From Candidatus Omnitrophota bacterium (GTDB lineage: Bacteria > Omnitrophota > Gorgyraeia > Duberdicusellales > 4484-171): a stretch of DNA of 64,000 nucleotides. A program made the translations under genes and the position numbers. Under the pieces are notes generated by a model that saw nothing but the letters and a program-made list of their open reading frames with translations, had not been told where the DNA came from and did no database searches. Below, one piece after another: positions 1 through 30,101 of this stretch (positions within the stretch are counted from its first letter, which is position 1; each line of letters begins with the position of its first letter). The stretch spans positions 16,403-80,402 of the forward strand of contig JBDRIY010000058.1 of assembly GCA_043815445.1 (NCBI GenBank), read 5' to 3'.

Positions 1-949
1 TTTTTATTTTTTCGCGGCTTATCATATTCAATACCCTTATCAAACCAGAACTGTCAGTAATCATAAGTATACCTGCGTTCTTCAAACGCGCGATAGAAGT
101 GTCATACATTTTATCGAAACGGGCAAGATAAGGGTTACAACCTGCTTTTACCGGGCTGGAAAAAGAATTGTAGTTAGTAATTTGCCTGCTCCGTTGGCGC
201 GAAGCGACTCTTCGGGGTTGTTGGTTGTTGGTTTGGGAAGCAGGGTTGGAAGAAAAATGTGCATATTTGAGGCGGAAGAATACCGGGGTGCCGGGCGGAG
301 GGGCCTGCTGGCGGCAGGATTCTATTTTGGCAAGCTGATAGCTGATACGGAAAAATTGTTCTAAACAAAAGATTACTTTTTGCGGCTCAAAGTTAACTTT
401 TATGATTTCTAACAGACTATAGCCTATTTTTACATAAAATAAGCCTGCTGAGTTTTTCTCGTCTACATCAAGAACTATACTATGAATATTCCTGCCGGAG
501 GAGAATTCAATTACTTTCTTAAATAATTGGGTACCGATATCCCTTTTCCAAAGGCATGGTTTAACCACTATATAGCTTATATAAATTGGGTATTTTCTAA
601 ACGGCCCAAATACTAAATATCCGGCAATTTCATTATTTATATATTTGATTACCGTATGGTTTCGTGGATTTTTTACCGCGCTAATAATATCCATACTATT
701 GCTTTCTACCGGAGCCTGGGGCAGGTTACCTACTGAATAGTTAAACAGTCCTATTGCCCTTTCTATGCTATCGGTAATACTATTTCCTTTAAAAATACAT
801 AGACCTTTATTATCAACTGCCGGGCTGGAAAAGATAAAATCTTTTGAATACGCTTTCAATCTAAAAATAGGAGTAGCGGCCATTTTATTTAAATCGCCCG
901 CGAAAACCTTAATGTTTACAGGCTTTTTAAAAAATAGAAGCGTCCCCAT
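1..949 (-). CDS. GNAT-family N-acetyltransferase domain protein. The 5' end (ATG) is at 949 and the frame runs off the window start. Residues after the GNAT core (window 1-380) form a GC-rich low-complexity segment containing RQQAPP.
   Basis: Reverse-complement translation gives MGTLLFFKKPVNIK...MDIISAVKN...YIVVKPCLWKRDIGTQLFKKVIEF...NIHSIVLDVDEKNSAGLFYVKIGYSLLEI. These are GNAT motif A (R/Q-x-x-G-x-G/A-like) and motif B. The plus strand here is T-rich, which is the minus-coding signature in this window. The 3' part of the frame is unverified. Confidence 0.4.
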   Translation of the reverse strand, partial: MGTLLFFKKPVNIKVFAGDLNKMAATPIFRLKAYSKDFIFSSPAVDNKGLCIFKGNSITDSIERAIGLFNYSVGNLPQAPVESNSMDIISAVKNPRNHTVIKYINNEIAGYLVFGPFRKYPIYISYIVVKPCLWKRDIGTQLFKKVIEFSSGRNIHSIVLDVDEKNSAGLFYVKIGYSLLEIIKVNFEPQKVIFCLEQFFRISYQLAKIESCRQQAPPPGTPVFFRLKYAHFSSNPASQTNNQQPRRVASRQRSRQITNYNSFSSPVKAGCNPYLARFDKMYDTSIARLKNAGILMITDSSGLIRVLNMISREKIK

Positions 950-1013
950 TTTTACGGCAATAGGAATAGTTTTATTGGCTTGACTAATCAAAGAAAATAA
1001 GGTATATATATTA

Positions 1014-1268
1014 GTGATGAAGACTAAAAGAATATCAAAGAAAAGGTTTAATGCTGATGCTTGGCTGGGCAAAAATCTTGAATATCTTGTTAAGAATTTT
1101 GCTGGAGGATACGTTATTATTGTAGATAACGTAGGCCTTGTATTTACAGATGCTGACGGAACACCGAGCGAAATTGTTAAAAAAGCAAAAGCTAAATATC
1201 CGGGGAGCATACCGCTATTTTTCCGTGTTCCCCGCCCGCAAGATTTTGTATGCGCTCTAATTCTATAA
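1014..1268 (+). CDS. Small hypothetical protein (84 aa), directly upstream of and overlapping the aspartic protease ORF.
   Basis: ORF in the track (MMKTKRISKKRFNADAWLGKNLEYLVKNFAGGYVIIVDNVGLVF...). The plus strand is purine-rich here. I recognise no family. Confidence 0.45.
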   Translation: MMKTKRISKKRFNADAWLGKNLEYLVKNFAGGYVIIVDNVGLVFTDADGTPSEIVKKAKAKYPGSIPLFFRVPRPQDFVCALIL

Positions 1269-1642
1269 AATTCCCTTATAAAATCCACAAAGGAATTGCC
1301 TGCCCTATTATTCCTATAGAAATAAAAGGCCTCATAATAGATACTTACGTAGATTCCGGAGCTTTTTATTCTATTTTTTCCACTAAAGAAGCTGAAGCCT
1401 TGGGGATAGAATACCAAAAAGGTAAACCTGCCCCAGCGATTGTAGGAGATGGCGCCCAAATACCTGTTTTTTATCACAAACTCGCTATTAAAATTGGTAA
1501 TACCTCCCTTATCGCAACTATAGGATTTTCTCCACGCCTGGGAGTCGGTTTCAACCTCTTGGGAAGAAAAGATATATTCAACCGTTTTAAAGTCCTTTTC
1601 GACGACAAGCGCCAAGCCATAACTTTTATTCCTTACAAATAA
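1250..1642 (+). CDS. Retropepsin-like (clan AA) aspartic protease.
   Basis: The translation contains the hallmark I-D-T-Y-V-D-S-G-A-F (D-S/T-G-A active-site motif) followed by a hydrophobic flap region. It overlaps the preceding ORF by 19 nt in a different frame. The true start may be internal. Confidence 0.55.
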   Translation: MRSNSIKFPYKIHKGIACPIIPIEIKGLIIDTYVDSGAFYSIFSTKEAEALGIEYQKGKPAPAIVGDGAQIPVFYHKLAIKIGNTSLIATIGFSPRLGVGFNLLGRKDIFNRFKVLFDDKRQAITFIPYK

Positions 1643-1676
1643 AAATACCGGCGAGCTGGAATATTCCTTTATTGTC

Positions 1677-4600
1677 TTAGCAATTTTTACCTCCCTAACC
1701 ATCCCTATATTATTCTTCAAAACATTCTCTTTTGCTCTTTCTAAGGCCTTTTCCCAGTCAACTTCATTTTCTAACTCAAGCCATTGAGCTATTCCATAAA
1801 CTTTTTTAACTTTTTGCTCATAAAACCATTCTCGCCAATTATTATTTATAGCTGTCATTAATTCTTCTAATCCGCGAACATGGTCGTTGTAACGAATTCC
1901 ATCATAACCATTTAAATACCTCTTGCCTTCTAACTCTTGCTCTTGAAAACCCATACTTCGTAACAAATTATACATAGGCATTATATGCTTTCTATAATGA
2001 ACCTTGTATATGCCCGCGGACATATATTCTAATTCTCTTTCTTCAATATCGCTTAAAGTATAATAGGCGTGGGCGTATCGCGCGCCTAAGTTTAACAACA
2101 AGCTTATTCGATATCCGCCAATAAAGGCCCGGGCAATTATCTCTTTTCCTAAGTTTTGCCTTTCAATCTTTAATTTAACCCTGCAGGTATGACAGCTAAC
2201 CGCTAATTCATCTAAATCTAATTTAACCGAACCTATAAAAACATTTCTTTCAGCAGTATAAAGTTTAAGTGAAATTACCCAGCTTCCTGTATCCGAGTTA
2301 AAACCAACCTTCCAAATTTCTTCAATAAAATAACTGCTCACACACTCAGGAAACAGCTTATGAAACTCCTGCTTCAAGGGACTGCTTATCTTATTAAGAG
2401 TTCCATTCTCTAATAAGTATTCTCCTGATTCGGCTATTTCGTAAATAAGGCCGCCTTCTTTTTTTAAGCGGTAGCCGCGCAAACGTTCTTGAGCAGATAT
2501 TTTAGGATCTGCCAGTTCATTTACAGTTAAGTTTTCAAACTCCCAGGATGTATCAGTATAGAATCTGCCTTTAACTAAGATGTTAACGTCTTTGGCCGCC
2601 TGAATTACCAATACTCCGTCTAAATCTAAATTATTAAATTCTACTTTACCTTCTCCTTCTACTACCAAAGTTGAGCGGTTAGTAACAGTGCCGCCGTTTT
2701 TAAAACTATCTATTACTGACTGAAGTGTGGGGTAGATTAAAGGGTCAAGATATATCTTTGCCCCTTTCTGATAGGTAACGCCGTGAGTCTGAGCAGGGGT
2801 GCCATAAACATTGATATCTATGCCGGCGGCTAACAAAGCGATGCGATTGTTACGGTAGAAGTCGCTTTCAGCTAAAGCCAATGTTTCTGAAGGTATGCCT
2901 GCGGCTACTGCGTCTCTTCCTAAAGATAAGCTATTTTTGGCAGCAGAAAATATCCAGGCGCCATCCTCAAACTGAATAACCGCTATTTCTCCTTTATCCC
3001 CTAAGATCTGAGCGATATCCTGCATATTATTCTCTGGCCGGCAGTCAGTTTTAAGCTTATGAGCTTTTATTTCTCCCGGCAAGGTGATTTTTATAAGCTT
3101 ATCCAGGCTGCGTTCTTTATCCTTAGGGTTAACTAACTCGGGCACCAGGCCTTGAGCTTCTTTTAAGGCCTCTTGATAAGGTTGAAATGCGATTACTAAT
3201 CCATTGAGATTACCGGGGAAAGGCGAAAGGCCAATATCATCAGCTTTATCTTTATCTCCTAAAAGCATATATTCTACGTTCATTACGGTCTCTTCTTTGG
3301 TTTGCTTATGGATTAATTTGGCTAAAGCGCCTACGTTTGAACCGGGATAACGCGGGGCGGCAAGAAAAACAAGGACGTATTTTTTTTCCTGAGCTAAAGC
3401 TAAGGCGGGAAGCAAAGAGCGAAAGACGGGTAAATTAGTGTCCTGATAAAAGACGATGAACTTAGCGTCTTTAGCCATGCCTCGCTCTATGACCTTATTC
3501 TGATAAAAAACCATATGAATATCTCCGTGGCCATGAGCTTTTTCAACCATTTTATAAGGATTCGCATTATCAACAACAAAGTGGCCTTCATAAGTAAAAA
3601 CAGAAAATACCAAAGGTTGAGGATACATTTCTATCTGGGAAGCTTTAGCGCCGAAATAGTAGTTTTCTTCGTAGAACGCTTGGATATCCCGATGATTATC
3701 CTCTGAGGTCATAATCGCGTTCATCAAGGTATAGTTTTCACCATTATGCTGGTTGGCAAGCCTTACCCAACCCATAATCTGACGGGCCTGAAAGCCGGCA
3801 AAACAGGAGTTATCACTGATCAAGGCTATGCGCAAGCCTGGCTTTATTCCGGTATAAGTCAAAGATTCATTTTTACTCAAGCGCTCTCCTCTTCCGCCGG
3901 CAGGCTCAGCCCAAATCACTTTATTAGCTATAGACAGGCCTTTTGCTTCTAATCCAAGGTAATATTGAAGAGCAGAATCTATAAGTTTACCCATAGAATC
4001 TACCAAAGAAGCGATAGTAGTTACCTCCGGGACATCTAATTTATAATCATCGAACCTGGCTTTGCCTGAATAGTAGTGTCTCAAAAGCCTCCTAACATTA
4101 TCAATTAAAGCTTCTATTCCTCCAGGGTATTGCTGACCACGGCTTAAGATTTGATTAAGCATTTTTAACTTATCCTGATCTTTTACTCCCGGGACATCCC
4201 AATGAGCAAAAATATGGGCCTGGCCCAAAGACAACATCTTTAAAATAAGCGCCAAGTGTTTAGGGAGGCTAATTACGCCTTGAGTAATATTGGCGGCTAA
4301 ACTCTCTAATCCTAACTCCTTGGCCTGCCGGGCGAGACTGTCCGAATTACTATCTTTATTAATAGGTGAGCTGGGGATATTGTTTGGAATAACAACCCCA
4401 ACCCAAGGTTTATTATGCCAATCTTTAACTTCTATTTCTTTTAGCGGCGCTAATAGCTTCAAGCCAGCGTATTGGAATATTGCCTTTAAATCATCTTCAC
4501 TAAATAAACGGATACATTTACCGTCATATCCTTCATACATTTCTTTTTCTATCGGCTTCTTATATCTAGTGTCTTTGGTAGAAAAAACCTTAAAAACTAA

Positions 4601-5876
4601 AGATCCTTTTGGGCTTAAGACTCTTCTTATCTCTCTAAAAACCGCTTTTGTTCTCCCCCATGAAAAATACTGCAAAGAAAGATGCGCGTAAACTATATCA
4701 AAATAGCCCCTTGGAAACATTTCTAATATTGAAAGCATATCGCCAATTATAAAAAGAGTTCTTCCTTTTTCTTCCTGATTCAACCTGCTTTTAAAACACT
4801 TTATAGCCTCTTTAGAAAAATCAATATGAATACCTGAAAATCCTTGCCGCGCTAACCAATAAGAACCTCCATCTCCATTCCCACAGCCTAAATTTAAAAG
4901 TTTCAGCTTTGAAATATCTTTACCTTCCACAGCTAATTTGACCAATTTTTGCATATTTTCAAAAACCTGAGGTTTAACCCATTTAGACCCGTTAGCGCTT
5001 CTTCCGGTGCTGTATTGCTTATTAAAAATATTTTTTAAAACTCTTAACCTAATGTTCTCCTTGCTTTCAATCGGCGAACTTACTAATTGTATTTTTAATG
5101 CCTCGAAGTTAACCGGACTGCTGGGGTTAGAAACACTCTTTGCTTCAAGAACTTGCCGAAGCTGATAAGCAGGCTGAGCGCCTTTTCTCCATTCTCCTGC
5201 CTTTGCAATTGCGATAGCTTCTTCTAACAGTTCGGGTTTCTGGGTTGCTAAAGCCTTAATTAAATCTGCCCAATAATTATCTATTTGAAAATTAAGCAGG
5301 TATGTTACGCTCCATTTTATTTCAGGATAGCTCATCCACCTAAGGAACCTGAAAGCTCGTTCCCATTGCTCAGCTTTTATTAAATTCTCTAAATGCTGTT
5401 TTGCCATTTGAGTTTTTAGGCTTACTCCATCACAGGTATAAAATAGCTGGCCTTTCTCGTCAATTTCTCCAAGGAAAAATACAATGTTACCTCCTGTTTT
5501 CCAATCTAAAGCTAACTCAGTTTGTTCAAAAAGAGACTTTAATAAAGGCTCAAGCCTTACGCGGTAACCTTTCCATAATTTCATCTCTCCCCACATCTCT
5601 TTAAATATTCGTAACCCTTCAGAGAAATCTTTCTTCGTACTCTTGGCTATCTTATTAAGAAGATCTTGAGCATCATCCCTTATCCGGTATATATCGCTTT
5701 GAAGCCTCTCATCCTCATATGTCTGTCTCGCGCAATTCCACATTGACTTAAATTCTCCAAACGCCCCAGGCCAATCCCCATCCTGAACCCTCTGTTGAAA
5801 CCTATCCCTATAAACTTTAAAATTCGAAATTGGGCTGGAATCTTTATTGACTTGCTCTTGGCTTCCTGCTATCATA
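1677..5876 (-). CDS. Large multidomain enzyme. It has an N-terminal helical region, a class I SAM-dependent methyltransferase, and a UDP-glucose pyrophosphorylase (UDPGP-family) like nucleotidyltransferase with a C-terminal extension.
   Basis: The ATG is at 5876 and the codon phase (plus-triplet starts = 0 mod 3) was checked. The in-frame stop TAA is at 1679-1677. The methyltransferase motif LNLGCGNGDGGSYWL is encoded around 4862-4900. The UDPGP motifs AEPAGGRGERL (~3886-3909) and KAHGHGDIH (~3512-3537) resemble the eukaryotic-type UGPase G-rich loop and P-G-H-G-D motifs. Confidence 0.6.
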
Positions 5877-5916
5877 TCCCTATGAATTTTAGCGGAAAGC
5901 TCAACTGATTGTATGT

Positions 5917-5922
5917 TATTAT
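5917..5922 (+). promoter_or_regulatory. Putative -10 (TATTAT) within the conserved promoter-like block upstream of antitoxin copy A1.
   Basis: The block ctcaactgattgtatgttattatt closely matches the block upstream of copy A2 at 14330-14352. GGAGG at 5933-5937 precedes the ATG at 5948. Confidence 0.35.
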
Positions 5923-5947
5923 TTTGGCGAAAAAGGAGGTAATTAAA

Positions 5948-6190
5948 ATGTCTAATAAAATTACTTTGGAACTTAAGCCTTCCACTGTTGAAGAACTGGT
6001 AGAAATGATGCCCATTGAAGCTAAGATCCGGCTGGTGCGTAAATTGGAAAAAGAGACGTGGGGTAAACGTATAGACACATTGCTCAAAAGAATAGACCAG
6101 CGCCGCAAAAAATACCCTATTTCTCAAAAAGAGATTTCTAAAGAAATAGCTGAAGTGCGAAGACAAATCTATGGTAAAAGCAACAATTGA
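5948..6190 (+). CDS. Antitoxin-like small protein, paralog family subtype A (copy A1). It is the partner of the downstream PIN fragment.
   Basis: MSNKITLELKPSTVEELVEMMPIEAKIRLVRKLEKETWGKRIDTLLKRIDQRRKKYPISQKEISKEIAEVRRQIY. It has an RBS GGAGG and a TGA stop. It is paralogous to 14378-14629, 11093-11338 and 30191-30439. The 20-nt overlap with the downstream PIN ORF is typical of TA operons. Confidence 0.7.
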   Translation: MSNKITLELKPSTVEELVEMMPIEAKIRLVRKLEKETWGKRIDTLLKRIDQRRKKYPISQKEISKEIAEVRRQIYGKSNN

Positions 6191-6380
6191 TACAAATATC
6201 ATTGTTTCCGGACTAATTACCAGAGGAAATCCCCGCAAAATATGGCAAGCGTTTAAGGCCGGAAAATTTAGGGTTGCTTTATCATCGTTAATGTTTGAAG
6301 AGCTAATGGGTGTCTTAGCCAGGTCGAAATTCCATCCCATCATTACCGCTAAAGAATTCATCACACAATTAGAAAAATAA
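6171..6380 (+). pseudogene. PIN-domain toxin, N-terminal fragment only (69 aa, against 137-140 aa in the paralogs).
   Basis: MVKATIDTNIIVSGLITRGNPRKIWQAFKAGKFRVALSSLMFEELMGVLARSKFHP. This matches the first half of the PIN family seen at 14604 and 30411 (first acidic residue IDTNI), but stops at TAA 6378-6380. Confidence 0.5.
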
Positions 6381-6479
6381 TACTCTTTTTCCTTAATAAC
6401 TGACACACTGGAAGCTTCTCTGTTGTCGTAGGAATCTTTTCTTCTATCTATCGGACTGGATATTTGCGGTTGGTTATTC

Positions 6480-6740
6480 GGCAAGAACATCGAAGCTTTT
6501 ACCCCCACTCGTCCCTCGTCCCTCGTCCTTCGTCCTTCGCACTCCATTCCCCCCTTCTCCCTTCTCCCTTCTCCCTCATTGCTAACTGTTAAATGATAAT
6601 TGATAATTGCTAATTGTTCCTTCCCCTCTTCTCCCTTCTCCTCACATCCCACATCCAACATCCCACGTCTTACATCTTCCCCCTTCTCCCCACTAGCACC
6701 CAGCACCCAATATCCAGTATCCAGAACAGAAGCGCCATCA
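6480..6740. repeat. C-rich low-complexity tract built of short tandem units (tcgtccc/t x4, cttctccc x3, gataattg-like x3, catccca-like x4, cacccag/cagtatccag).
   Basis: Direct reading of the sequence. The plus strand is almost T/A-stop free here. The minus strand would encode a Gly/Glu/Arg-rich tail. Confidence 0.8.
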
Positions 6741-6749
6741 TCAAAAGTA

Positions 6750-9700
6750 GAAGGAACACGAATACCCTTGTCAGTTTCTTCCGGCATTGACTCAAGCTGT
6801 TTAATAATTATATTGTGGATTTCCCACGAGTTCATATTCTTAAAGCCTGACCCTTCACCTTCTAAATTAGACTGCGCCTTATCTACTAAATCAGCATCTT
6901 GAAAACGCATATTAACTACCCTTAAAGCTTTTATTGCTTTTTCCTGGCCCATTTGAACCTCTACTTTCCAATCCTCTATAAAAGTTCTTAAAATATCTGT
7001 TGCTTTATAGCTCAAATGTTCAAATGTTTCATCTTTCTTCATTATGCTGCGCAGTTGAAATTCAATATTTAATAAGGCAATAATGTCTATCGGCCTACAC
7101 CCCTGAATGATTTCATCTTTCAAATCATTGATAACCTTTTCTATTACTGCAGGATTAATATTTACATCCAAGGCAAAAATCATATCCTCTATAATTATTA
7201 TCGCATTATTACCATCCGTATACACCTCTACCCCCGCCCCCGACGGCATATCTATTACTCCATCCTCCGCCCTAACATCTCCCGGCGTAGGCAAAATCCA
7301 AGCAACTGTACTTAGAATACCTTGTAATATTGACCCTTTATCTAACAAAGTAGTTTTCTCTTGCTTTTTACCCTGCTTTTCCAATTCTTCCTTATTAAGC
7401 CCGCCTTGCGTTTGCGCATCTACCTGTGAGATGTACATTAATCTATTATATTTATTATCACGATTATTTTTAAGATATTCAATTATCTCACCCCATAATA
7501 ATTCAAATTTTAACTTTACTATCGCAGTATCTGCTTCAGCAGTAATCCCAAAAACGCTAAATGCTCCCAAAAGTGAATTCCCGCGATACTTCTGTTGCGC
7601 GGCGATAACCGTTGGGTAACTCAGAGATTTAGGAAATCCCGCGTATTCCTTGTACCATGAGAATAAACCCTCTTTTTTGAAATCCTGCATAAACCGCGTG
7701 GCAAAGTTCAACTCATTTACCTTATCCTCCATAGTTACAGCACCATGATCTATTACCGGGAGATATTGACTTAATTCATGGGTTAAAACTAAAGCAATTT
7801 GCCCATCCGGCTTATCCTTATATTCAGAGTTCATCTTCACTACCAAAAGCCCTTCTTCTGCTTCTACTACCACAGGCAAACAACTGCCGTCTCCTGCCTC
7901 TGAATCTATCCAGCCGCCGGCCCTTAATATTCCACTGTATTTAGCTAAAGAAGTGTCGTGGTAACCAAGAATTACTGCTACATAATTTACCGCCCAAACT
8001 AATTTATGATTATTTTCATTCTCAGCAGATACCATGCTAACTTTATGATTTATCTCCAAATCATCCGACACCCCATTGCGATTAATATCGCGATAGCGTA
8101 ACTGCATAAGATCATTAGGCATATAAAGACGGTCTAAGGAAAGGGACTCCTCTGCTTTCCTTCCTATCTGCTGCCAGGTTGCTCTTTGACTTATACTTTC
8201 ATCAAGAATAGGCCAGAGATATTTCTGGGATTCAATTGATAATTGATTAGTTCCCAAAAGCTGCACATTAGGCCAAGCGCTTGTCAACAGCACTGCGTAA
8301 TGGTTTAAACTTGAACATGAACCTACGATATAGATTTTTGCAGGGTAGTTATCATTAGGTAAATTAGTAAAGGTTTGATACAGATTGATTCCTATACCTG
8401 AATGGCCATCATATAAAATTCTATGGATATTAGGATCTCTGGCGAATTGGGCTATTTCATTGCTATCGTCTTTTGAAAATAGAGAAATAAATACACTCTC
8501 ATCTACACCGCCAATAACACCTCTATAGATACCTTCTTCACTCTCTTTAAACCCGTATCTTTCTGAAATACCTGCCGTAAAAGAATCCAAAAATTCGCTA
8601 TCATAAAAATAGGCTTTAGTTCCCACTCTGTTTAATTGTCCTCCCTGAGCTTGTGCCCATTCTTCATAAGGAGGCGCTATAGGGAGAGAGGCTAACTGCC
8701 ACAAATCTTTATCTATAACTTCATCGAATCGATACATATCTGGGTCTTGAGACTGACGGGATATTGCCTTAAATACACTGGCTATATGATAAAAGGTTTT
8801 TATAGAATTTAGGGTAGCACCTTCAGCTATCGCTCTCTCTCTTGCCTCTATATATTGAGGAAACATCAAAGATAATCCTTTAGGCGTAACATTCAATAAC
8901 TCTATGCTCAAGGAGCTAATCTCATCTAAACAAAGCGGGCCGAGAATAGAACTTTCATCCACCCTGACCCATTCCCCTAAAAGCCTCTTATCTATTTGAC
9001 TCAGTTTGCCCCGCATCTCAAAATAGCTCTTCACAATACCGCTTAATCTCGTCAACCCCTCCGTCGCATTCAGCTCTTCTGAGTTTATATTAGGCTTACT
9101 ACTAACACAAATGGTTCTTCCTTCTACAGTAACCCAAGGAGATATTTCCCCCGCCCAAGCACAAGGAATTAAATTACTGAAGAAATTCTTTATGCGGGTA
9201 GAAAATATTTTGTCTTCTTTCGGCGGGTCCTTATTATTAAGTTGTATTTTTTCTTCTTTCAATGGCTGTCTCGGACTAAACAAACTAATATCGCCTTCAG
9301 GTTGAGGTAAAATTAAAGACGCAGGCTCTGACTTTCCAGCTTTAGACTGAGACTGTCTAGTACTTATCTCAGGAATCCGCGTAGATTTAGGTAATGGTTT
9401 CGAAGCATCTCCACCTGTATTCTTTAGCAAATTCTTCATTTCGCCAACGCTTAACGCCTGCTTCCAATTATTATTTTGATTACGCAGAATGGGCATACTT
9501 GGAGAATAAGGCACAAATGGCCTAGTTGGAGTATAACCGGAACTAGGAGCTGCTGAAGCATTGCCTCCTGAAAGCATAAAGAACAACCCAATTCCGAAAG
9601 TGAGGACAACAACTACAAAGACCGGGCCATACTTATATGTATAATAACCAAAACTTTTTTTAACCTCGGGTAAATATTTCCTTACAGCAGCAATTGTTTC

Positions 9701-10816
9701 TTTTTCTATCTCAACTTTCTCATTTTCAAACTTAAATTCCTTCCACACATTCTCGGTTATCTTTTCATAAAGACTGTTAATCAATTCCTTTAATTGTTTG
9801 TCAATAGATTCTTTAGATAAATTGTTGCTGTCGTGGAATATTGTGAGAAGTACTATATTTGTTAAGTTATCTTCTGTAAACTCGCTTTCTAAAGTATCTT
9901 CTATAACCTCGCGTGATAAGGACACCCCTATTTCTTTCTCAATTTCTTCCATCTTCTCCAAAGATAAGTATTGTGACGTCTGAGAAAGTTCTTTAATTCT
10001 TTCATTTACCCTTCCGGCAAACTCTTTTTTAATCTGATTATCTTCCAAGTTATAGTTAACGGATGTTGTAACAGCTTCTCTTATAATAGAATAAAGAAGT
10101 TCTATCTTCTCTGGCGCGGTTAATTCGTAATTTTTCCTATTGACTGCTCTTAAGTACTTATTTATTACAAAATCAAATAGATAATCCGCGTTGGATGGTA
10201 TATTGCATTTTCCTTTCGGATTTGTTTTAAATTCAAAGTTTTCCCTCCATACAGCAATTTTCTCCAATTGTTCCTTAAACTCTTTTACTGACTCTTCAAG
10301 GTAATTCAAGCTGCATTTCAAGCGCGAATCTTCACTGCGCTCACTTAGCTTCTTTTTTATCATTTCTAAGGCCGCGTTTAACAAGTCAAACGCGTCTCTT
10401 GTAGAGCTCGTATCTCCCAAAGCGCATATTTCTTTTATACGTTCATCTTCCAATTTATCTCTTATATCTTGTATGTCTCCCTCTTCTATTTCTATAACGC
10501 CAAGAATTTTCATTATTTGTTCATATGTCTTGCCAACATATTCAAAAGCATTGGTTACAGTTTTATTTTCTCCGATTCCATCATAAAACTTCTCCACAAC
10601 ATCTACAGCATGGCCAAAATTATCAATCCCCTTACTTCCTCTCCGTATAATAAACACTGTCGAAACAACCACTGCAATTGCTGCCGCGATAAGATAACCT
10701 GCAGCTACCGCTACCCACCACTGTGCTGAAGTCAAATATAAAAATGTGCTTGAAGCTAAAGTATCTCCTGCAAAAGCAAATCCAACTTTACTAAAGAAAA
10801 CAGCTGCCCCCGCCAT
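6750..10816 (-). CDS. Large membrane-anchored protein. It has N-terminal TM helices, a long helical region, a second TM segment, and a C-terminal alpha/beta region with a His...Cys pair (ILYDGHSG ... IYIVGSCSS), possibly a caspase/CHAT-like protease fold. The 3' end is approximate.
   Basis: ATG at 10816 (phase 2). The two other frames at the start hit stops within 30 codons. Phase 2 was verified open, and the other phases closed, at 6841-6900 and 7021-7080. There is no in-frame stop before the C-rich repeat tract, so the end is not fixed. Confidence 0.45.
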
Positions 10817-11039
10817 AACCGATAGCAAAGCAAACTTTGACTTTCTCAACAAATTCCGCCCCCAATTGCCACCCCATCTTAAAAATAGTGAAAATAGGGA
10901 CACATCCCCTTTTTCGTTTACCACCGCGCTACTTGTCTTCGCGAGAGCCACAGGAAAAACAGAGGAATTTTGAATAAAGTGACGAAGCTGTACGAGGATT
11001 CTTGATTCTCGTAAAATAGAAACATCCCTACACAAATCC

Positions 11040-11068
11040 TTGACATGATTTTTAAGAAATGGTATAGA
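11040..11068 (+). promoter_or_regulatory. Sigma-70-type promoter TTGACA-17 nt-TATAGA for the subtype-B antitoxin.
   Basis: TTGACA 11040-11045, 17-nt spacer, TATAGA 11063-11068, RBS GGGGAGG 11081-11087. A nearly identical block is at 30102-30130. Confidence 0.5.
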
Positions 11069-11092
11069 TAAGCCGTCATAGGGGAGGTGTTT

Positions 11093-11338
11093 ATGACTAA
11101 AATTACGATTGATCTTAAACCAGAGCAAATCAAAGAAGCTTTTCAAAAACTTACTATTCAAGAAAAACTTCGCCTTACCCGAGAAGTTGAAAGGCTTACC
11201 CGGCGTTTCCGCTGGGATAGTCTCATTACTAAAGTCAGAGCCCGCGCTAAAAAATATCCCCTTGCCCAAAAAGAAATAAATCAAATATGTAAAGAAACTC
11301 GTAAAGAACTTTATGAAAAAAGAGCTAACTGCCGCTAA
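11093..11338 (+). CDS. Antitoxin-like small protein, subtype B (copy B1). It is an orphan: no PIN gene follows.
   Basis: MTKITIDLKPEQIKEAFQKLTIQEKLRLTREVERLTRRFRWDSLITKVRARAKKYPLAQKEINQICKETRKELYEKRANCR. It is about 85 percent identical by eye to 30191-30439. The track called the GTG at 11087. The ATG at 11093 is better placed relative to the RBS. Confidence 0.7.
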   Translation: MTKITIDLKPEQIKEAFQKLTIQEKLRLTREVERLTRRFRWDSLITKVRARAKKYPLAQKEINQICKETRKELYEKRANCR

Positions 11339-11462
11339 CAACCCAACGAGCTCGAGGTGGAAAAAAGAACCAGAAAAATTAGAAAAGTGCTTAATAAAAA
11401 ACTTATTCTTGACAAGATAGAACATTTTGTAGATAATAATAAAGCAAAATAAGGAGGAAATT

Positions 11463-11864
11463 ATGGAAGAAAAGAAAATTGCAAAGTTATTAGAAAAAAT
11501 GAATGGTAATATTATCGAGTTGAATAATAAATTTACTGGATTAGATAACAAGGTTACTGGATTAGAAGAAGGACAAAAAGAACTTAAGGCAGGCCAATTA
11601 AGAATAGAAACTAGGCTGGGGAAAGTTGAAATCAGGCTGAAAAAGGTTGAAGATAAATTAGAAGCTACTTTTGTCCGGACAGGCAAAAATTTCGAAGAAA
11701 TTACCCAAATTAAAACCCAGTTAGAAAGCCTTGAAATAATTAAAAAAGACATACTAACTATTAAACATACCCTTAGAAAAAAGGCTGATTTAGAAGAACT
11801 ACAATCCTTAGAAAACCGCATGGCAATAGCAGAAAGACGATTAGCAAAATTCATCCACCATTGA
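11463..11864 (+). CDS. Coiled-coil protein (133 aa), function unknown.
   Basis: RBS AAGGAGG at 11452-11458. The sequence is heptad-rich (LEKMNGNIIELNNKFTGLDNKVTGLEEGQKELKAGQLRIETRLGKVEIRLKKVEDKLE...). Confidence 0.55.
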   Translation: MEEKKIAKLLEKMNGNIIELNNKFTGLDNKVTGLEEGQKELKAGQLRIETRLGKVEIRLKKVEDKLEATFVRTGKNFEEITQIKTQLESLEIIKKDILTIKHTLRKKADLEELQSLENRMAIAERRLAKFIHH

Positions 11865-12055
11865 CCTATCACGGGTTTTTCACCTTGAGGCGCATCTTGG
11901 AATTTTGCTCTATCTTCCTTCCAAATATGAAAAGAAAAATACCAATCCCCCTCTTCAAAGCCCAGCTTTTTAAAAACAACATTATTTAAGCGCCTTTTAA
12001 ATTCTCCTTGATTTCTCAATAAAGATATGTTATCTTTTGTATGAGGTGAATTATA

Positions 12056-12277
12056 ATGACTAAACTGGTTTCCGCTATTTACGAGCATGGGAATCTTAGG
12101 CTTATTAAACCGCTGAAACTGTCTGAACACCAGAAGGTGCTTATTGCTATTGCTGTTAGCAACGATGAGATACCTTCTATGCTCATCAGCAAACTCGCTG
12201 AGAAGTCGAAAAGTTTCCATTTCTTGACCAACCCTGAAGAAGATATTTATTCCCCCTCTGACGGAGAAAAAGTCTAA
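12056..12277 (+). CDS. DUF104-type (AbrB/SpoVT-like fold) antitoxin.
   Basis: MTKLVSAIYEHGNLRLIKPLKLSEHQKVLIAIAV. This matches the 'AIYENGVLKPLEPLxLxEG' signature of the DUF104 antitoxin family. A MazF gene follows 5 nt downstream. Confidence 0.6.
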   Translation: MTKLVSAIYEHGNLRLIKPLKLSEHQKVLIAIAVSNDEIPSMLISKLAEKSKSFHFLTNPEEDIYSPSDGEKV

Positions 12278-12281
12278 CTTT

Positions 12282-12629
12282 ATGAGCCTTAAACGCGGGG
12301 ATATCGTTCTTGTGCCTTTTCCTTTTACAGACTTAACCAGCACAAAGGTTCGTCCGGCAGTTATTATTTCAGCTGACCCCCAAAAAGAAGATATAGTTAT
12401 AGCCTTTATTTCCTCAGTAATTTCCAAGCCTGCCGGTAACACAGAATTTTTACTTACTTTAACCAATCCGGATTTTGCCTCTACCGGCCTTAAAAAAGAC
12501 TCTATATTTAAAATGGGTAAAGTTCTTACTCTTTCAACCGTCCTCATCCTAAGGCGCCTTGGACGCATATCTGCCAACATCCAAAAAGAATTAGACAATC
12601 TGCTCAAGAAAGCGCTGGAACTCACATAA
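12282..12629 (+). CDS. mazF: MazF/PemK-family endoribonuclease toxin.
   Basis: MSLKRGDIVLVPFPFTDLTSTKVRPAVIIS... This is the canonical RGDIVLVDFPFTDxSxxKxRPALVLS N-terminus of PemK/MazF. Confidence 0.8.
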   Translation: MSLKRGDIVLVPFPFTDLTSTKVRPAVIISADPQKEDIVIAFISSVISKPAGNTEFLLTLTNPDFASTGLKKDSIFKMGKVLTLSTVLILRRLGRISANIQKELDNLLKKALELT

Positions 12630-12649
12630 TTTACTATTCCCTGATTTTC

Positions 12650-13480
12650 CTTAGAAAAATAATACTCTTTTTTCACCGGCAAATTGATAGGATTTTCTTT
12701 CGTTTGAACAGAGGCCTGAGCAATAGCGGGGTTATCTTGGTTTGTGCCAATGGGTGAGCTGGGAATACTCGATCCTAGATACTCGATGCTCGATGCTCGT
12801 AAAATAAAAACATCCTTTTTTCCTTGCGGCGGTGAGGCTCCGCTATGTCTGTATCTATCTTCATCTTCAAAAGCAAACTTTTCAAAAACAACATTATTCA
12901 AAAATCTCTCTGCCTTTCCCTCAACTAAACTTTGTTTTGATACAAGTATGCCGGAGCTAGATTTTGTTTTAGAATTAACCTCCACCTTGTCATTCCCTCT
13001 ACCCGGCTCCTGCATTATAATAGCCAATTTTGCGTTGTTGAATTCAAAGCCATAGACGCTGTCTGGATATGATACAAGGAACTCTTCTTTTTCTACTTTA
13101 ATCTTTTGTATATCTTTACCATCCTTATCAGCTAAATAAGCTGTGAATGAACCTTGCCGGCAAAGAGAAATTTCCATTCTACCCTTTCCGTCTTTTATAT
13201 GCTTATGAGCGCTTTCTTTTCCCTTGGCTGTTTTTATACCTACTCCTATACCAGCGCTCCTTGGCGTAATCATTGCCATTTTTGAAGGCGAATACATACT
13301 GGATCTATGAATTACAGCCATTAAATTGCCTTTATCATCTCTATCATACTCAGGATAAGCCTCCAACCCCTCAAACCCCTGAGCTATCTTATCGTATATT
13401 TCAAGAAGAACCGGAGAGCTGGAATGACTGCGGCCGGTTTGAGTTGAATCTTTACTCTTTAGATAGGCTTTCTTGACAAA
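12650..13480 (-). CDS. Hypothetical protein. Minus-strand coding is supported by T-rich plus-strand composition and a protein-like translation. The boundaries are approximate.
   Basis: Reverse-complement translation ...MAVIHRSSMYSPSKMAMITPRSAGIGVGIKTAKGKESAHKHIKDGKGRMEISLCRQGSFTAYLADKDGKDIQKIKVEKEEFLVSYPDSVYGFEFNNAKLAIIMQEPGRGNDKVEVNSK... The two plus-strand track ORFs here (12744-13055, 13273-13476) look like shadows. The ORF ends with a PxxxKKEYYFS tail like the one at 6393-6410. Confidence 0.3.
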
Positions 13481-13558
13481 ATTACCTATACGTGGTAATG
13501 TTATTTTTATAATAACCTTTGAATTATTGTAAACAATAAAAATAATATAGAGGTATAA

Positions 13559-13828
13559 GTGCGGTTTCAAAGATACGAATAGGATGATGCAAATATAGAG
13601 CATATTAGCAGTCATAAAGTCATCCCACAGGAAATAGAAGAAGCTAATTTCAACGAACCTCTTGTAATGAGAGTAAGGGGTAATAGATATATTGTTTATG
13701 GACGTAGTGATAGTGGACGTTATATTTTTATTGTGACTATTCATAAAGGACAAGGGGTTGTGCGCGCTATTGCCGCCCGTGATATGACACAAGCTGAGCG
13801 CAGGCTTTATAATAAAAAGCGAGGTTAA
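13559..13828 (+). pseudogene. brnT: BrnT-family (DUF497) toxin interrupted by an in-frame amber codon (TAG 13580-13582).
   Basis: The translation (GTG start) is VRFQRYE*DDANIEHISSHKVIPQEIEEANFNEPLVMRVRGNRYIVYGRSDSGRYIFIVTIHKGQGVVRAIAARDMTQAERRLYNKKRG. This resembles BrnT (xRFEWDxxK...HGVSFEEA...). The stop falls about where the conserved Trp is, consistent with TGG to TAG. BrnA follows 3 nt downstream. Confidence 0.55.
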
Positions 13829-13831
13829 TCT

Positions 13832-14110
13832 ATGCCCAAAAAGATCCCCAAATTCAGGAGTGAATCCGAGGAAGCTAACTTTTGGGCCACCCATGATAGT
13901 ACTCCATTCTTGAAAGATATGAAGGAAGTCTCCAATATCCGGTTTCCTAAACCAAAGCATAAATCGCTTATCCTTGACCTTGAACAACCATATATAGAAG
14001 CCATCAAAAAGATTGCTAAAAAGAAACATATCCCCTATCACAATCTTATAGAAAGATGGATTAAAGAAAAAGCCCTCCCTAAAATGGCCGCTTCTACTAA
14101 TCTCGAATAA
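13832..14110 (+). CDS. brnA: BrnA-family antitoxin (ribbon-helix-helix).
   Basis: MPKKIPKFRSESEEANFWATHDSTPFLKDMKEVSNIRFPKPKHKSLILDLEQPYIEAIKKIAKKKHIPYHNLIERWIKEKA matches the BrnA signature (IPxFxSExEExEFWxTHDSTDY...). Confidence 0.75.
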   Translation: MPKKIPKFRSESEEANFWATHDSTPFLKDMKEVSNIRFPKPKHKSLILDLEQPYIEAIKKIAKKKHIPYHNLIERWIKEKALPKMAASTNLE

Positions 14111-14323
14111 CTTTTTCGAAACCAATTTTACGGCAGACAAATATTGCGTATAATCAAACAAATAAAAATCATTGTTATTTTTAATACAACTACGAAATCC
14201 TTCAAAACTCATATTATTAATGGATGAACTGTTCTCGTGAGAAAAGGTGTCTGTCCCCTTTTTTAAATAATTATCTTGATTTTCATTAGATGTATCTCTT
14301 TTTTTACGTCCCCTAATCTCTCC

Positions 14324-14352
14324 TTGACTCAATAACACTTGTATGTTATAGT
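14324..14352 (+). promoter_or_regulatory. Sigma-70-type promoter TTGACT-17 nt-TATAGT for antitoxin copy A2.
   Basis: TTGACT 14324-14329, 17-nt spacer, TATAGT 14347-14352, RBS AAGGAG at 14366-14371. The ATG is at 14378. Confidence 0.5.
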
Positions 14353-14377
14353 TTTTTTGTATAAGAAAGGAGAAAGA

Positions 14378-14629
14378 ATGTCTAATAAAATCACTTTGGA
14401 ATTGAATCCTAATCAAGTAAAATCTTTGGTAGAAAAACTTTCTATTCAAGAAAAAATACGCCTTTTGAAAAAACTCGAACAAGAAACTTGGGCAAAAAGA
14501 ATAGATAACGTAACCACAAAAATAAAAAAGAAATTTAAACAATACCCTCTGCCCAATAAAGAAATTACCCGTATTTGTAAAGAAACCCGCCAAAAAATCT
14601 ATAATGAAAGAACTAAAAGTCGTCATTGA
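14378..14629 (+). CDS. Antitoxin-like small protein, subtype A (copy A2).
   Basis: MSNKITLELNPNQVKSLVEKLSIQEKIRLLKKLEQETWAKRIDNVTTKIKKKFKQYPLPNKEITRICKETRQKIYNERTKSRH. It overlaps the PIN start by 26 nt. Confidence 0.75.
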   Translation: MSNKITLELNPNQVKSLVEKLSIQEKIRLLKKLEQETWAKRIDNVTTKIKKKFKQYPLPNKEITRICKETRQKIYNERTKSRH

Positions 14630-15017
14630 TTCTAACATTTTAGTAAGCATACTAAAGGGAAGCGTTTCTCTGTCAATAATATATACCGCTTTTAAAGAAA
14701 ACTCATTTAAACTAATCATAAGCGCTGAAATTCTAAAAGAATTAGCGTCTGTTTTATACCGTCCCCACTTAAAAATTAATCCTTCTGATATAAAAGAACT
14801 CTTCAGATTAATAAAAAATAAATCTATTCGCGTAAAATTGCCCACGCCATTCATCAACGCTTGCCGTGACCCTAAAGATAATTTTATATTAGAACTAGCT
14901 ATAACCGCCCAAGCGAGATTTATTATAACCGGCGATAAAGATTTACTTACTCTTTCTCCATTTAAAGGAATCTCTATCCTATCCGCTAAAGAATTTATCG
15001 CTTTCTTAAAAAAATAA
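14604..15017 (+). CDS. PIN-domain ribonuclease toxin (137 aa).
   Basis: MKELKVVIDSNILVSILKG...ITGDKDLL. This has the PIN-family conserved acidic residues and is full length. It is a paralog of 30411-30833. Confidence 0.8.
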   Translation: MKELKVVIDSNILVSILKGSVSLSIIYTAFKENSFKLIISAEILKELASVLYRPHLKINPSDIKELFRLIKNKSIRVKLPTPFINACRDPKDNFILELAITAQARFIITGDKDLLTLSPFKGISILSAKEFIAFLKK

Positions 15018-15020
15018 CCC

Positions 15021-18000
15021 TCCGGAGAACTTCTCACATCTCCAATCTCCAAGAACAAAACACTTAATTGTTGGCTTTTTACCTGAATTTTTTCAATTAG
15101 GTGTTCTGTCCCCTTAATTATCCCCTTAATTATCCCCTTAATTACAGAAAACAGAAGCTTCCCCTTTTCTACTCCGCCTGCTTCTACGGCAGATGAATAG
15201 ATAGCATTAGAATGCCTATTTTTCTGCGCCAAAAAATACTTTCCTCCGTTCTCACTAACAACATTTATATATGGACAAGTTAATGGTTTACTTAAATCTA
15301 TCAAATAAAAATCCTTTTTTGTTGAACTGCTAGGCTTTACAAGTTCTCCACTAACCGCAGAACTCTGCGCCAATAAAGATGTCAATGAAAACATGAAACC
15401 ATCTATATCCTTAATTACACACCTCTTGTCTAAATAATCTCTTATAGCGTAGTAAAAAAACGAAGATAAATTTCCTCCTTCAACAGCGGGCTTGCCGGTA
15501 ATGCTCTTTATAAACCGGCAAAGATAATTAAACTCTTGTTTTTGAACTTGGCCAAATCTTGAAACGAGATCGACAAAATTAAAAGTTCCAGAAAGTTTAA
15601 GCACATCTACAGGATTATCATTTATGTACCTATCCAAAGATTGCCCTTTCTCTTCTAATGATTTCATAATACTAATTCCAGGAAATAAAAATACTGAATG
15701 GATAGGAACCAAATCAGGAATAGAAACTCTTGCTTGATTTTTTAAATCATCTTTTCCCCACCACAAAACTTTAGATTTTTCTAAACGTTTCACTTTGCTA
15801 AAATACGGCCGAGCCACCTTACCATCCGGAAACGGCATATCTTTACATAAAATATCTTCCATTATCAAAAATTGCGTTTCCGCAGTAAGAGAAACTATTC
15901 CCTTTTGAACACCTGAAGCAATGAAACCATACAAATCTTTATGAATCCTCAAAATCAATTCCCTATCTTGAACAGTTGCCTTTAAAACTAAATAATGACT
16001 ACTTTGCTCAAACCTAATAATTGCTGAAGACCCTGCCCCACCCGACACCTGAACTTTTATCGGTTTTGCTTCTCCAACACAAGAAGGAAACTGCTGATTA
16101 CCTTTCTTAATCAAATCTTGTTTATCTTCCAATATTTTCTTTAAAATTGGCTCAATCTTTAATACAACAAGATTGACAAGACGTTCTTCATAATCTCTTG
16201 TAAGAGAAATATCTCTGCTGGATATGAGGAATATGCAGTTCATACTAATATCTGGGAAATTATTAAAATCTATCGGGCTGGATTTTAGGAAAGATATTAG
16301 CGCTCTCGTCATATTGACAGTATGTTCATTGAAAATGCGAGTGGTTAAGGAAAAATGTATAATTATCCACTGATATTTCTTTTGCTTCGCCCATGATTTA
16401 TAGATTCCATAAGATAACGTGCTTAATTCACTAAACAAACCAAGGCCGATCATAGCCTGGTACGGATTTACTAAAGGCGTAAATTTTCCTGCCGCGGCAA
16501 ATTTAGCGTAATTACGGCCGGTTGGTTTTATCTCTTTGTCCGTAAACTTATCTATTAAATCCGCAATACTCCAATTATTATTTCGCAAAATCCGCACGAT
16601 ACTCCCCTCTTCTATCTTTACAATGCTTCGAAAACATCCCATAAAAAGAACATCATCGTCTAAAACAATATTCAAACGCCGCGTTAAATCCTTAATCTGT
16701 TCAAAAGCGAAAGCCGCTTTACTTCTTTTAAAATAACTGATTGCTGTCTGGTTGAGATCACATCCAAATAAATAGTATCTTTTTCTAACATCTTCAATGA
16801 ATTCATCTACTGCCTTAAAAGCTATAATAACATCCGTATAACTCGCGTTAAAAGAAAGATACTTTGCCAATTTCTTATGCCATTTAATAATATTCAGCTG
16901 GCCGGAATATAACTCTCTTAAAAATAACTCCCTGTATTGTTCAAAAACATTAGCTTTGCCGTTTACTTGTTTAATTACTTTAAGTCTACGGCCTCCCCCT
17001 AACCATGCCCCTGCCTCTTGCTGCAAAACATACTCACATCTAGCAAAATATTCTTTTAATATACGGCGTACGCGCTGTCTTGAAAGGTTCCATTTTTTAG
17101 CAAGATCCTCCGGCGCTTTTCCTTTAATAAACCAGGCAAAAAATATTTTTTTATTCCTGATTATTTTCTCACCGCTATGACTAATTGTTTTAGATAAATG
17201 ACTGTTTAAAATCATTTTTATTCTTTTCTTTTCTTTAATAGTATATTCTTTCTCTATAAAGGCTGGCGCGGATTTTTCATAAAGATTACCTCCACTATTC
17301 TTTATGCAATTAGCATATATAAATTCTATGTTCTCTTCTTCATGCAAATTTTCCGGCGAATATTTTTCGATCCTCTTAACATACCGAATACAGGAGTTTC
17401 TAATCGCTTGTAAAAAATAATTTCTCACTTTAGCATTATATTGTCTATTTTTCTCTTCATCAAATAACTCGATGGCTCTAACTAACCCTCCTCTTCCGAT
17501 ATTATTACCATAAGTTCCTATTTGTATTAAATCATTTAGCTGAAGATTTAACCGGCGATTTTTACGAAGAATCCGCCGGGCCGTATTTTTTACTAAATAC
17601 GCGTTCATTATAAGCAATGTTTCTCTTGCTTCTAAACTGCCTTTTTGAACTAATCTAAGCAACTCTAAATTCTCTTCTTCTGTGAGCGCCCTTGGTAGCG
17701 ATATAACAGTTCGATCTATTACTTTAATATCCGGCAAAATTTCTTTTATTCCATTCCACCCCATATATTTTCCTACCCATGGCCCTTTACCTTTTTTAAA
17801 TGAAGCAATACCGGCTTTCTTAATAATCCTGCTCCACGGCCTTGATGCCCGGGCCCTTACCACCCAAGGATATCCTTCTCGTATCCACTGTGTTGAATTC
17901 CCCGGGTCAGTAATTCCGGGCGGTGGTTTTCTTAGTAAGGCAATAATTTGTTTTTGGGAATATTTTGCTCGTGAAGTACTCTGGGAAATTACCGGACTGC

Positions 18001-20143: not shown

Positions 20144-20191
20144 AAGAATTTCATAAACTTCGGGCGTCTTTTCCTTCAACAAATTCGCAAT

Positions 20192-30100: not shown

Positions 30101-30101
30101 C

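Follow-up and report, generated by a model that had tools for sequence, protein, structure and literature searches.

Giant proteins have been described in the Omnitrophota, among them the 'Archaeovorin' type (West-Roberts et al. 2023, bioRxiv 10.1101/2023.11.21.568195) and a class named 'multi-enzyme metabolic cluster' (Nielsen & Lui 2026, bioRxiv 10.64898/2026.06.07.730766). Such proteins come from open reading frames (ORFs) of tens of thousands of codons, in which scattered and unrelated enzyme domains are separated by long unannotated spacers, hydrophobic segments recur every few hundred residues and no repeat dominates. In this study we analyzed a stretch of 64,000 nucleotides from a Candidatus Omnitrophota bacterium (contig JBDRIY010000058.1, positions 16,403 to 80,402; the whole stretch is called the window hereafter), in which an initial annotation, made from the letters alone, had proposed a protein of 1400 aa at positions 1677-5876 that fuses a methyltransferase with a UDP-glucose pyrophosphorylase-like domain. 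All of the above properties of the Omnitrophota giants are found again here, and the region is probably a run of ~1,400 codons within a multi-enzyme, membrane-tethered giant gene of the Omnitrophota type, in which two independently folding domains became neighbours by domain shuffling.

The likeness extends to the domains themselves. PF08241, PF00583, HD, PF08323, PF04055, a peptidase and a glycoside hydrolase are shared between the Omnitrophota giants and the frame in the window, whose set of domains agrees with modules 1 and 2 of the catalogue of long Omnitrophota proteins as well as with the 'Archaeovorin' class. Fragments of Omnitrophota metagenome-assembled genomes (MAGs) also hold the closest homologues of the window's methyltransferase and of its UDP-sugar pyrophosphorylase (USP). 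A UDPGP/USP domain is unmentioned in the main text of both papers, whereas the window carries one. The USP of the window is divergent but apparently competent, and stands beside a generic methyltransferase.

The frame that contains the region lies on the minus strand (window 2..64000, with codons beginning at 64000, 63997 and so on). By a stop count per frame it is free of stops over 21,333 codons, the other five frames of the window having 878-2438 stops each. It is open across the whole 64,000 bases and runs off both window ends, so the gene covers at least 64 kb and at least 21,333 aa, and its codon-usage score is positive almost everywhere. Because it runs off both ends, this frame was missed by the general ORF listing, which leaves out ORFs that run off the sequence ends; the longest ORF listed in the region 1677-5876 (table 11) has 170 aa or less. 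The separate protein of 1400 aa did not survive, as neither a start nor a stop codon stands at 1677 or 5876 and the frame is open for at least 21,333 codons. Frame 1 of the coordinates 1677-5876 was also considered and rejected, being full of stops on both strands; the true frame lies one base away.

At least 10 distinct enzyme domains are found in the giant frame, with long unannotated stretches in between. Those recognized in the translation, by Pfam and PDB scans unless stated otherwise, are as follows, with positions in the giant protein (giant aa).

giant aa 446-613, minus strand: AmyA-gluTrfs_C domain
giant aa 1176-1344, minus strand: starch-synthase GT5 domain (Glyco_transf_5)
giant aa 1752-2063, minus strand: alpha-amylase catalytic domain
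giant aa 5157-5338, minus strand: HD/HD-GYP-like domain (HD_5)
giant aa ~7519-7641, minus strand: first Radical SAM domain
giant aa ~10041-10201, minus strand: second Radical SAM domain
giant aa 14253-14410, minus strand: Peptidase M24
giant aa ~19678-19849, window 4451..4966, minus strand: class I methyltransferase dependent on S-adenosylmethionine (SAM), by Pfam
giant aa 19920-20526, window 2420..4240, minus strand: complete USP of the UDPGP family, by phmmer against the PDB
giant aa ~21108-21194, window 416..676, minus strand: GNAT acetyltransferase, the next recognisable domain downstream of the USP (Acetyltransf_1, E 8e-9 / 3.4e-9; also Acetyltransf_7 and _10)

The alpha-glucan part of the frame has in addition a PDB match of the alpha-glucan phosphorylase type. 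No NUDIX or SecA-like domain was seen within this window. Along the giant protein stand ~42 hydrophobic segments, which makes about one every 500 aa.

Within the region 1677-5876 and its immediate borders, the following elements were recognized.

window 4967..5947, minus strand: unannotated stretch of ~325 aa upstream of the methyltransferase, predicted mostly helical
window 4865..4888, minus strand: GCGNGDGG, motif I of the methyltransferase, the SAM-binding glycine loop, read from the translation
window 4241..4450, minus strand: linker of ~70 aa rich in P, S and N, from the domain boundaries
window 3878..3904, minus strand: PAGGRGERL, the nucleotide-binding loop (NB-loop) of the USP, aligned with G122-L128 of the Leishmania major enzyme (LmUSP), E126 and R127 included
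window 3515..3535, minus strand: HGHGDIH, catalytic core of the USP by alignment, with H256, H258 and D260 invariant in the clade
window 1643..2419, minus strand: unannotated stretch of ~260 aa downstream of the USP

The three motifs on which the initial annotation had been built are thus all there, in one frame and read on the minus strand (4888-4865, 3904-3878 and 3535-3515), the first two being separated by 328 aa and not by about 500 aa as had been written. A frameshift splitting the two domains was looked for, and neither a stop nor a frameshift stands between them: they belong to one polypeptide.

The methyltransferase call holds well. Methyltransf_11 (PF08241) matches the domain with E 5.3e-14 and 53-54 bits against a cutoff of 21.2, and four further models are above their cutoffs, namely Methyltransf_25 (PF13649, 2e-13), _31 (PF13847, 2e-12), _23 (PF13489, 9e-11) and _12 (PF08242, 3e-8). 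Motif I reads LNLGCGNGDGG and is followed by GIHIDFS, with the acidic residue at the end of beta-2 ~20 residues on, and the same motif I variant, LNLG[CA]GxGxGGS, is found in two Omnitrophota homologues, P0117 and P0150. No substrate-specific family was matched, all NCBIfam hits (MduS, BioC, CpaM, UbiE and others) being far below their cutoffs, nor any family of sugar or nucleotide-sugar methyltransferases in NCBIfam and the PDB. In the PDB, the chains that come closest (6mro, 1ve3 and 8gdu) belong to small methyltransferases that are uncharacterised, and the closest relatives, P0117, P0150 and P0103, are Omnitrophota fragments with 42-48% identity.

The second domain had been called a eukaryotic-type UDP-glucose pyrophosphorylase. 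The family stood, with a full-length match to solved structures, but the domain is more precisely of the USP type and stays below the cutoff of the Pfam UDPGP model. Known USPs (EC 2.7.7.64), of which LmUSP (PDB 3OGZ/3OH0-4, 8TG2) and MbUSP are solved, are enzymes of ~600-640 aa, whereas the USP of the window is part of a giant polypeptide; it is like them along the full length and in all three domains, that is, the N-terminal, the catalytic and the C-terminal beta-helix part. The match to 'MbUSP' (9uml/9umk) has E 1e-63 to 1e-68 and covers chain residues 22-583 of 600, with query residues 1-581 aligned to residues 35-583 of the 9uml chain, that to LmUSP (3oh0) has E 6.5e-30 over chain residues 42-615 of 641, and 8tg2 matches with E 2e-29. 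In LmUSP, E126 and R127 of the NB-loop together with K134, K398 and K434 are catalytic or pyrophosphate-binding residues (PMC12584669). All five have identical counterparts in the window by alignment, as has HGHGD, and GGxGERL, the K134-equivalent lysine, HGHGD, QDTN, NVEY, PGNxN, NPK (K398) and KN (K434) are shared with the known USPs; the concern that the motifs might align poorly to the family is thereby removed. Furthermore, every invariant column of the USP clade embedded in Omnitrophota proteins is kept. The domain is therefore likely to be an active enzyme as far as its residues tell, and the reaction would most likely be UTP + sugar-1-phosphate <-> UDP-sugar + pyrophosphate (UTP and UDP, uridine tri- and diphosphate).

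The two domains are ~60-70 aa apart with no hydrophobic segment in between, and in fact aa 18,145-20,983 of the giant protein are free of such segments. The methyltransferase and the USP would for this reason share one compartment, presumably the cytoplasm, where both UTP and SAM are found. The flanks are less informative. The upstream stretch 4967..5947 has no Pfam, NCBIfam or PDB match and no homologues, and the single-sequence AlphaFold2 (AF2) model of it is helical with low confidence (pLDDT, the model's own confidence score, 44); the downstream stretch 1643..2419 has neither a family match nor homologues, and its AF2 single-sequence model has pLDDT 34. Scans for promoters and terminators gave matches at chance level.

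To put the USP among its relatives, 1.84 billion representative proteins were searched exhaustively with HMMER, which gave 224 USP relatives below 1e-30. In the best of them the USP is embedded in proteins of 1,000-4,763 aa, several of which are marked 'partial' and come from Candidatus Omnitrophota MAGs; some of these embedded Omnitrophota USPs are named UTP--glucose-1-phosphate uridylyltransferase by NCBI. A word-indexed homologue search with the USP returned nine stand-alone USPs at ~30% identity and nothing else. For a pattern scan of genomes, a first alignment of USPs (A1) was too divergent, and a tighter one (A2) of embedded USPs was used. Around the USP in four loci on Omnitrophota-type contigs, open frames span the whole fetched sequence, with more than 7,033 aa (L003), 4,799 aa (L004), 3,967 aa (L005) and 2,754 aa (L011). 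In Verrucomicrobiota, Kiritimatiellales, Pontiella and Lentisphaera, on the other hand, the USP is an ordinary stand-alone gene of ~620 aa. These two distributions mark the clade as a PVC-group enzyme that was built into giant genes.

What stands beside the USP elsewhere is a ROK kinase with a ribulose-phosphate 3-epimerase, DUF4922 with PGM, PPDK_N, PFK with PGM, or HAD with PRK. The locus L003 (SBBM01000032.1, binned as Planctomycetales) has as neighbours of its USP a eukaryote-type GT48 1,3-beta-glucan synthase (PF02364, E 8.6e-87), a second UDPGP domain, a radical SAM domain and a cytidylate kinase. Its features are located as follows.

L003 locus aa 1257-1721, 2673-2940, 3366-3948 and ~6730-6960: GT48, two UDPGP-family domains, radical SAM and cytidylate kinase

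This frame looks like a tethered line for the supply and the use of UDP-glucose, and the theme of the USP neighbours is sugar and nucleotide metabolism, not methylation. In the giant gene of the window the USP would accordingly be part of a sugar-metabolism module, probably feeding UDP-sugars to glycosyltransferase domains of the same tethered chain, and domain shuffling would have brought the methyltransferase next to it as an independent neighbour. In P0014 and several other fragments with a USP, the N-terminus resembles a signal peptide and is followed by a conserved unannotated domain (MWVNLSPYE..RIIP..FG.TEMGRDLLAQDY.LKQL) and then by the USP; such N-termini call a purely cytoplasmic location into question.

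The rival that keeps most of the initial annotation is a dedicated methyltransferase-USP unit, which would methylate a sugar-1-phosphate or a UDP-sugar and so yield a methylated sugar donor. Bacteria do have an enzyme built in this manner: GlmU is bifunctional, a sugar-nucleotide pyrophosphorylase fused to a modifying enzyme, and the fusion is conserved across bacteria. Like the proposed unit it joins a nucleotidyltransferase with a group-transfer enzyme of the same pathway; it belongs however to another nucleotidyltransferase fold family and its partner is a left-handed beta-helix acetyltransferase, while the partner in the window is a methyltransferase and the adjacency is not conserved. A methyltransferase of the window's type was found beside the USP in none of the 150 best USP relatives by a BLAST-level test. 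As this test is too insensitive for the unrelated methyltransferase of L005, it was repeated with Pfam on the loci, with a local hidden Markov model and with a motif regular expression. A directly adjacent methyltransferase then appeared in one of ~43 other embedded USPs (those preceded by 200 aa or more), the one being that of L005, a frequency which the density of domains would by itself roughly produce. Searched against one another, the methyltransferases of L005 and of the window give no match even when the database is tiny, and they are of different, unrelated subfamilies. Conversely, the closest relatives of the window's methyltransferase go without a USP: P0117 and P0150 extend ~970 and ~1,490 aa downstream of the methyltransferase and contain none, and P0103 contains none either. 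Among the 1.84 billion representatives, no USP protein of ~600 aa is long enough to hold a methyltransferase, and the longer USP-bearing relatives have none beside the USP in local searches, the L005 locus aside. Together with the lack of any match to a sugar or nucleotide-sugar methyltransferase family, these results make the coupling of sugar-nucleotide formation to methylation improbable.

Several points weigh against the reading as two independent domains of one giant chain, and some of them leave room for a functional pairing. The linker has ~70 aa, which is unusually close when most domains of the giant frame are hundreds to thousands of residues apart, and both domains lie in the same membrane-delimited compartment. 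In L005 a methyltransferase (Methyltransf_23/11) stands ~40 aa upstream of the USP, and a weak one stands ~1,080 aa before the USP of L003. With regard to the USP itself, Pfam UDPGP (PF01704) gives only 12 bits (E 0.087, cutoff 22 bits), relatives in the same clade scoring 30-109 bits, so that Pfam and NCBIfam by themselves would reject a call that was recovered by the PDB sequence search. The domain is the most divergent member of its clade, with 30-37% identity to the embedded ones and no closer identity to any other relative. It has insertions of 6 aa after the NB-loop and of ~14 aa after NPK, and several second-shell substitutions at otherwise well-conserved positions; NB-loop position 3 is Arg instead of Leu. 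Because of this divergence, the unique insertions and the substitutions, activity is not guaranteed. As for the gene, no close relative was found when the USP was searched against genome contigs and the methyltransferase-USP stretch against metagenome contigs, an exact 39-mer had no match in the metagenome contigs either, and outside the USP the ORF has no similarity to the fetched giant fragments. Finally, that the whole frame is translated as a single chain is itself presumed from its sequence.

Equally improbable in our estimate is a variant in which the methyltransferase, the USP and the GNAT domain work with the alpha-glucan enzymes to build a methylated or acylated alpha-glucan, the USP giving UDP-glucose and the methyltransferase acting on the polymer. 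Synthesis of the mycobacterial methylglucose lipopolysaccharide offers an analogy. AmyA-gluTrfs_C, GT5 and the alpha-amylase do lie in the same ORF as these three domains, and relatives have PGM, ROK kinase and glucan synthase along with the USP. But the argument is one of co-occurrence; the glucan domains are separated from the methyltransferase-USP part by ~18,000 residues and many membrane segments, the giant also bears the unrelated HD, radical SAM and M24 domains, and the methyltransferase has no specific similarity to known polysaccharide methyltransferases. We therefore keep the reading of two shuffled domains in a multi-enzyme giant.

The giant frame is probably not the only coding information in this DNA. 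Repeats on the plus strand of the window spell out a ribosome-binding site together with a start codon, and also the peptide of a PIN toxin, which led to an ORF listing, and at least 8 type II toxin-antitoxin (TA) cassettes (PIN, MazF/PemK, HicAB, BrnT/CopG and AF2212-like) were recognized antisense inside the giant frame, most of them full length. The TA islands occupy 5948-6380, 11087-11338, 12056-12629, 13667-14110, 14378-15017, 19686-20143, 30191-30833 and 43796-44407 of the plus strand, and a further pair of nested ORFs stands at 1014-1642. One per line, the nested ORFs are as follows.

1014-1268, plus strand: DUF5678 ORF (24.6 bits, cutoff 23.2)
1250-1642, plus strand: retropepsin-like aspartyl protease ORF (Asp_protease_2, 25.9 bits, cutoff 24.3)
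5948-6190, plus strand: antitoxin-like ORF with a Shine-Dalgarno sequence (AAAGGAGG upstream), no Pfam match
6171-6380, plus strand: truncated PIN (PIN_3, 1.1e-8, profile positions 3-66 of 115)
11087-11338, plus strand: orphan antitoxin-like ORF, no Pfam match
12056-12277, plus strand: AF2212-like partner of the MazF gene (~1e-7)
12282-12629, plus strand: MazF/PemK toxin (PemK_toxin, 1.6e-12)
13667-13828, plus strand: partial BrnT toxin (1.1e-5, below cutoff)
13832-14110, plus strand: CopG/BrnA antitoxin (1e-18)
14378-14629, 30191-30439 and 43796-44029, plus strand: antitoxin-like ORFs upstream of three PIN genes, no Pfam match
14604-15017, plus strand: PIN_3 toxin (2e-21)
19686-19913, plus strand: HicB antitoxin (1e-11)
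19910-20143, plus strand: HicA toxin (5.5e-18)
30411-30833, plus strand: PIN_3 toxin (4.5e-19)
44033-44407, plus strand: PIN toxin (5e-17)

The first genes of the TA pairs are preceded by Shine-Dalgarno sequences of the GGAGG type. The log-odds score of codon usage for the giant frame falls to ~0 exactly at the islands, where the plus-strand frames rise, with a drop also at 1014-1642, and at island 5948-6380 the plus frame outscores the giant frame. The interval 1677-5876 is exactly the stretch of the giant frame between the islands 1014-1642 and 5948-6380.

The stop-free state of the giant frame across these genes can be tested by the codons that they avoid. TA genes whose codons are in register with those of the giant frame (834 codons) lack TTA and CTA altogether in 67 Leu codons and TCA in 56 Ser codons, whereas in those offset by one base (541 codons) 26 TTA and 13 CTA occur among 65 Leu codons and 7 TCA among 42 Ser codons. 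Likewise, trinucleotides that would create a stop at the offset critical for the giant frame number 0 in the offset TA genes and 31 at the same offset in the aligned group. Synonymous codons were also resampled for the 15 TA ORFs according to the codon usage of the giant gene, which favours TTA above all other Leu codons, and the probability of a giant frame free of stops came to ~1e-25. The only explanation of this phase-specific pattern is therefore selection on the minus frame, which keeps the giant frame open across the TA genes. The TA genes in turn differ between paralogous cassettes at codon positions 3/1/2 by 17/11/3, 78/65/39 and 41/34/21, with many of the differing codons synonymous, and this third-position bias indicates that they evolve as coding sequence under purifying selection. 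The peptide read in the giant frame across the islands is antisense-like in composition and dictated by the TA genes, with F at 13.2% vs 5.3% elsewhere, S at 12.4 vs 6.8% and E at 2.9 vs 7.3%.

The mobile unit consists of promoter, antitoxin and toxin. The PIN cassette at 14.3-15.0 kb lies between direct repeats of ~16 nt, GGTGT(T)CTGTCCCCTT, at 14246-14262 and 15100-15117 of the plus strand; the repeat core has no further copy in the window, and the distance of 855 nt (3 x 285) between the two copies is compatible with an in-frame insertion that duplicated its target. TA cassettes are known to stabilise large arrays such as superintegrons, and like those of the window the superintegron cassettes are small mobile units that bear a promoter. 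It is a speculative extension that the cassettes are addiction modules which protect a gene longer than 64 kb and prone to deletion.

Taking these results together, we lean slightly towards the view that the giant gene is dual-coding, that is, the TA cassettes and the DUF5678/protease pair would be nested antisense in a giant frame held free of stops, with the TA genes under purifying selection of their own. The giant protein would then be translated straight through 'passenger' segments rich in F and S that are set by the TA genes, and what was annotated as a methyltransferase-USP protein would be one inter-island module of this architecture. A third rival, slightly less probable than the two above, takes the giant frame not for one functional protein but for an artefact, for a gene in decay or for a series of modules expressed separately, with 1677-5876 as effectively its own gene product. 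It would account for the coincidence of this interval with the gap between islands, for the loss of giant-frame coding signal at the islands and for the antisense-like composition of the peptide encoded there, but is countered by the absence of any stop codon at which ribosomes could terminate between modules, of a convincing Shine-Dalgarno sequence and start codon for the module and of long exact repeats that would point to misassembly in the window, and by the frame-specific avoidance of TTA, CTA and TCA in the antisense genes with its internal phase control.

Embedded antisense overlapping genes are known in E. coli and Pseudomonas (PMC8850804, PMC9927249), where, as in the window, two protein-coding frames occupy opposite strands of the same DNA. 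Those cases concern a novel small ORF in an ordinary gene, whereas here at least 8 genes of conserved families (PIN, MazF, HicAB and CopG/BrnA) lie in a giant gene, and, unlike in the known cases, the sole constraint visible on the host frame across the nested genes is the avoidance of stop codons. Nested or opposite-strand genes are unmentioned in either paper on Omnitrophota giant genes, and no precedent was found in the literature. The same coding-signal scan, run over 47 kb of giant ORFs from L003-L005, detected no antisense island, phmmer with the TA proteins of the window found nothing antisense in nine giant fragments, and an exact look-up of three of these TA proteins gave no match. 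From the absence of islands in the other giant ORFs, the nested TA genes may be specific to this lineage.

By itself the methyltransferase-USP 'fusion' is of modest interest, and a giant frame kept open through nested TA genes adds more. Apparent 'novel fusions' in giant genes of the Omnitrophota type are to be expected from domain shuffling, so that a bifunctional reading needs conserved adjacency. The recurrence in giants of a complete and apparently competent USP from the 'eukaryotic' UDPGP family, beside PGM, ROK kinase, PFK, cytidylate kinase and once a GT48 glucan synthase, suggests that giants carry tethered supply lines for nucleotide sugars, and Pfam-based catalogues of their domains will undercount USP-type domains such as that of the window with its 12 bits. 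If translation through the TA genes is true, the window would offer an unusually clear example from nature of long antisense dual coding with conserved gene families. It would also bear on the upkeep of genes of more than 60 kb and on how many nested genes annotation pipelines miss, as gene callers would systematically hide them since the giant ORF outcompetes them.

Several minor features concern the giant protein as a whole. Self-BLAST at 1e-5 detected no internal repeats, though diverged DNA repeats and transmembrane (TM) cassettes exist. The first TM cassette, of ~100 aa with three helices (...KFAGIVLxFICLGILFSVSLVSA...), recurs through the giant protein in the following copies.

giant aa ~6770-6860, window ~43700-43420, minus strand: TM cassette 1
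giant aa 9077-9175, window 36770-36475, minus strand: TM cassette 1
giant aa 11270-11365, window 30190-29905, minus strand: TM cassette 1
giant aa 11526-11625, window 29420-29125, minus strand: TM cassette 1

A second cassette, the unit 'FQFLPKFP...LAPP...LFLFFYT(R/H)HKN', is found at giant aa ~5905, 6389, 7427, 8307 and 11018. Diverged internal duplications of the DNA, with 65-89% nucleotide identity, relate 34.6-35.8, 41.9-43.5 and 44.9-46.0 kb to one another and 11092-11328 to 30190-30426, and show that the giant gene grew partly via duplication of its own segments, TA cassettes included. Apart from the islands, the coding score of the giant frame is ~0 also at window 101-550 and 49151-49600, where no recognisable gene is found on either strand. 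Rfam and tRNA scans of the window were empty, and it holds no phylogenetic marker. A GC-rich repeat of 50 nt (…GGGGCCTGCTGGCGGC.GGATTCT), for which no Rfam match and no significant predicted RNA structure were found, occurs twice, at window 274-323 and 17983-18032, in surrounding DNA of 37% GC.

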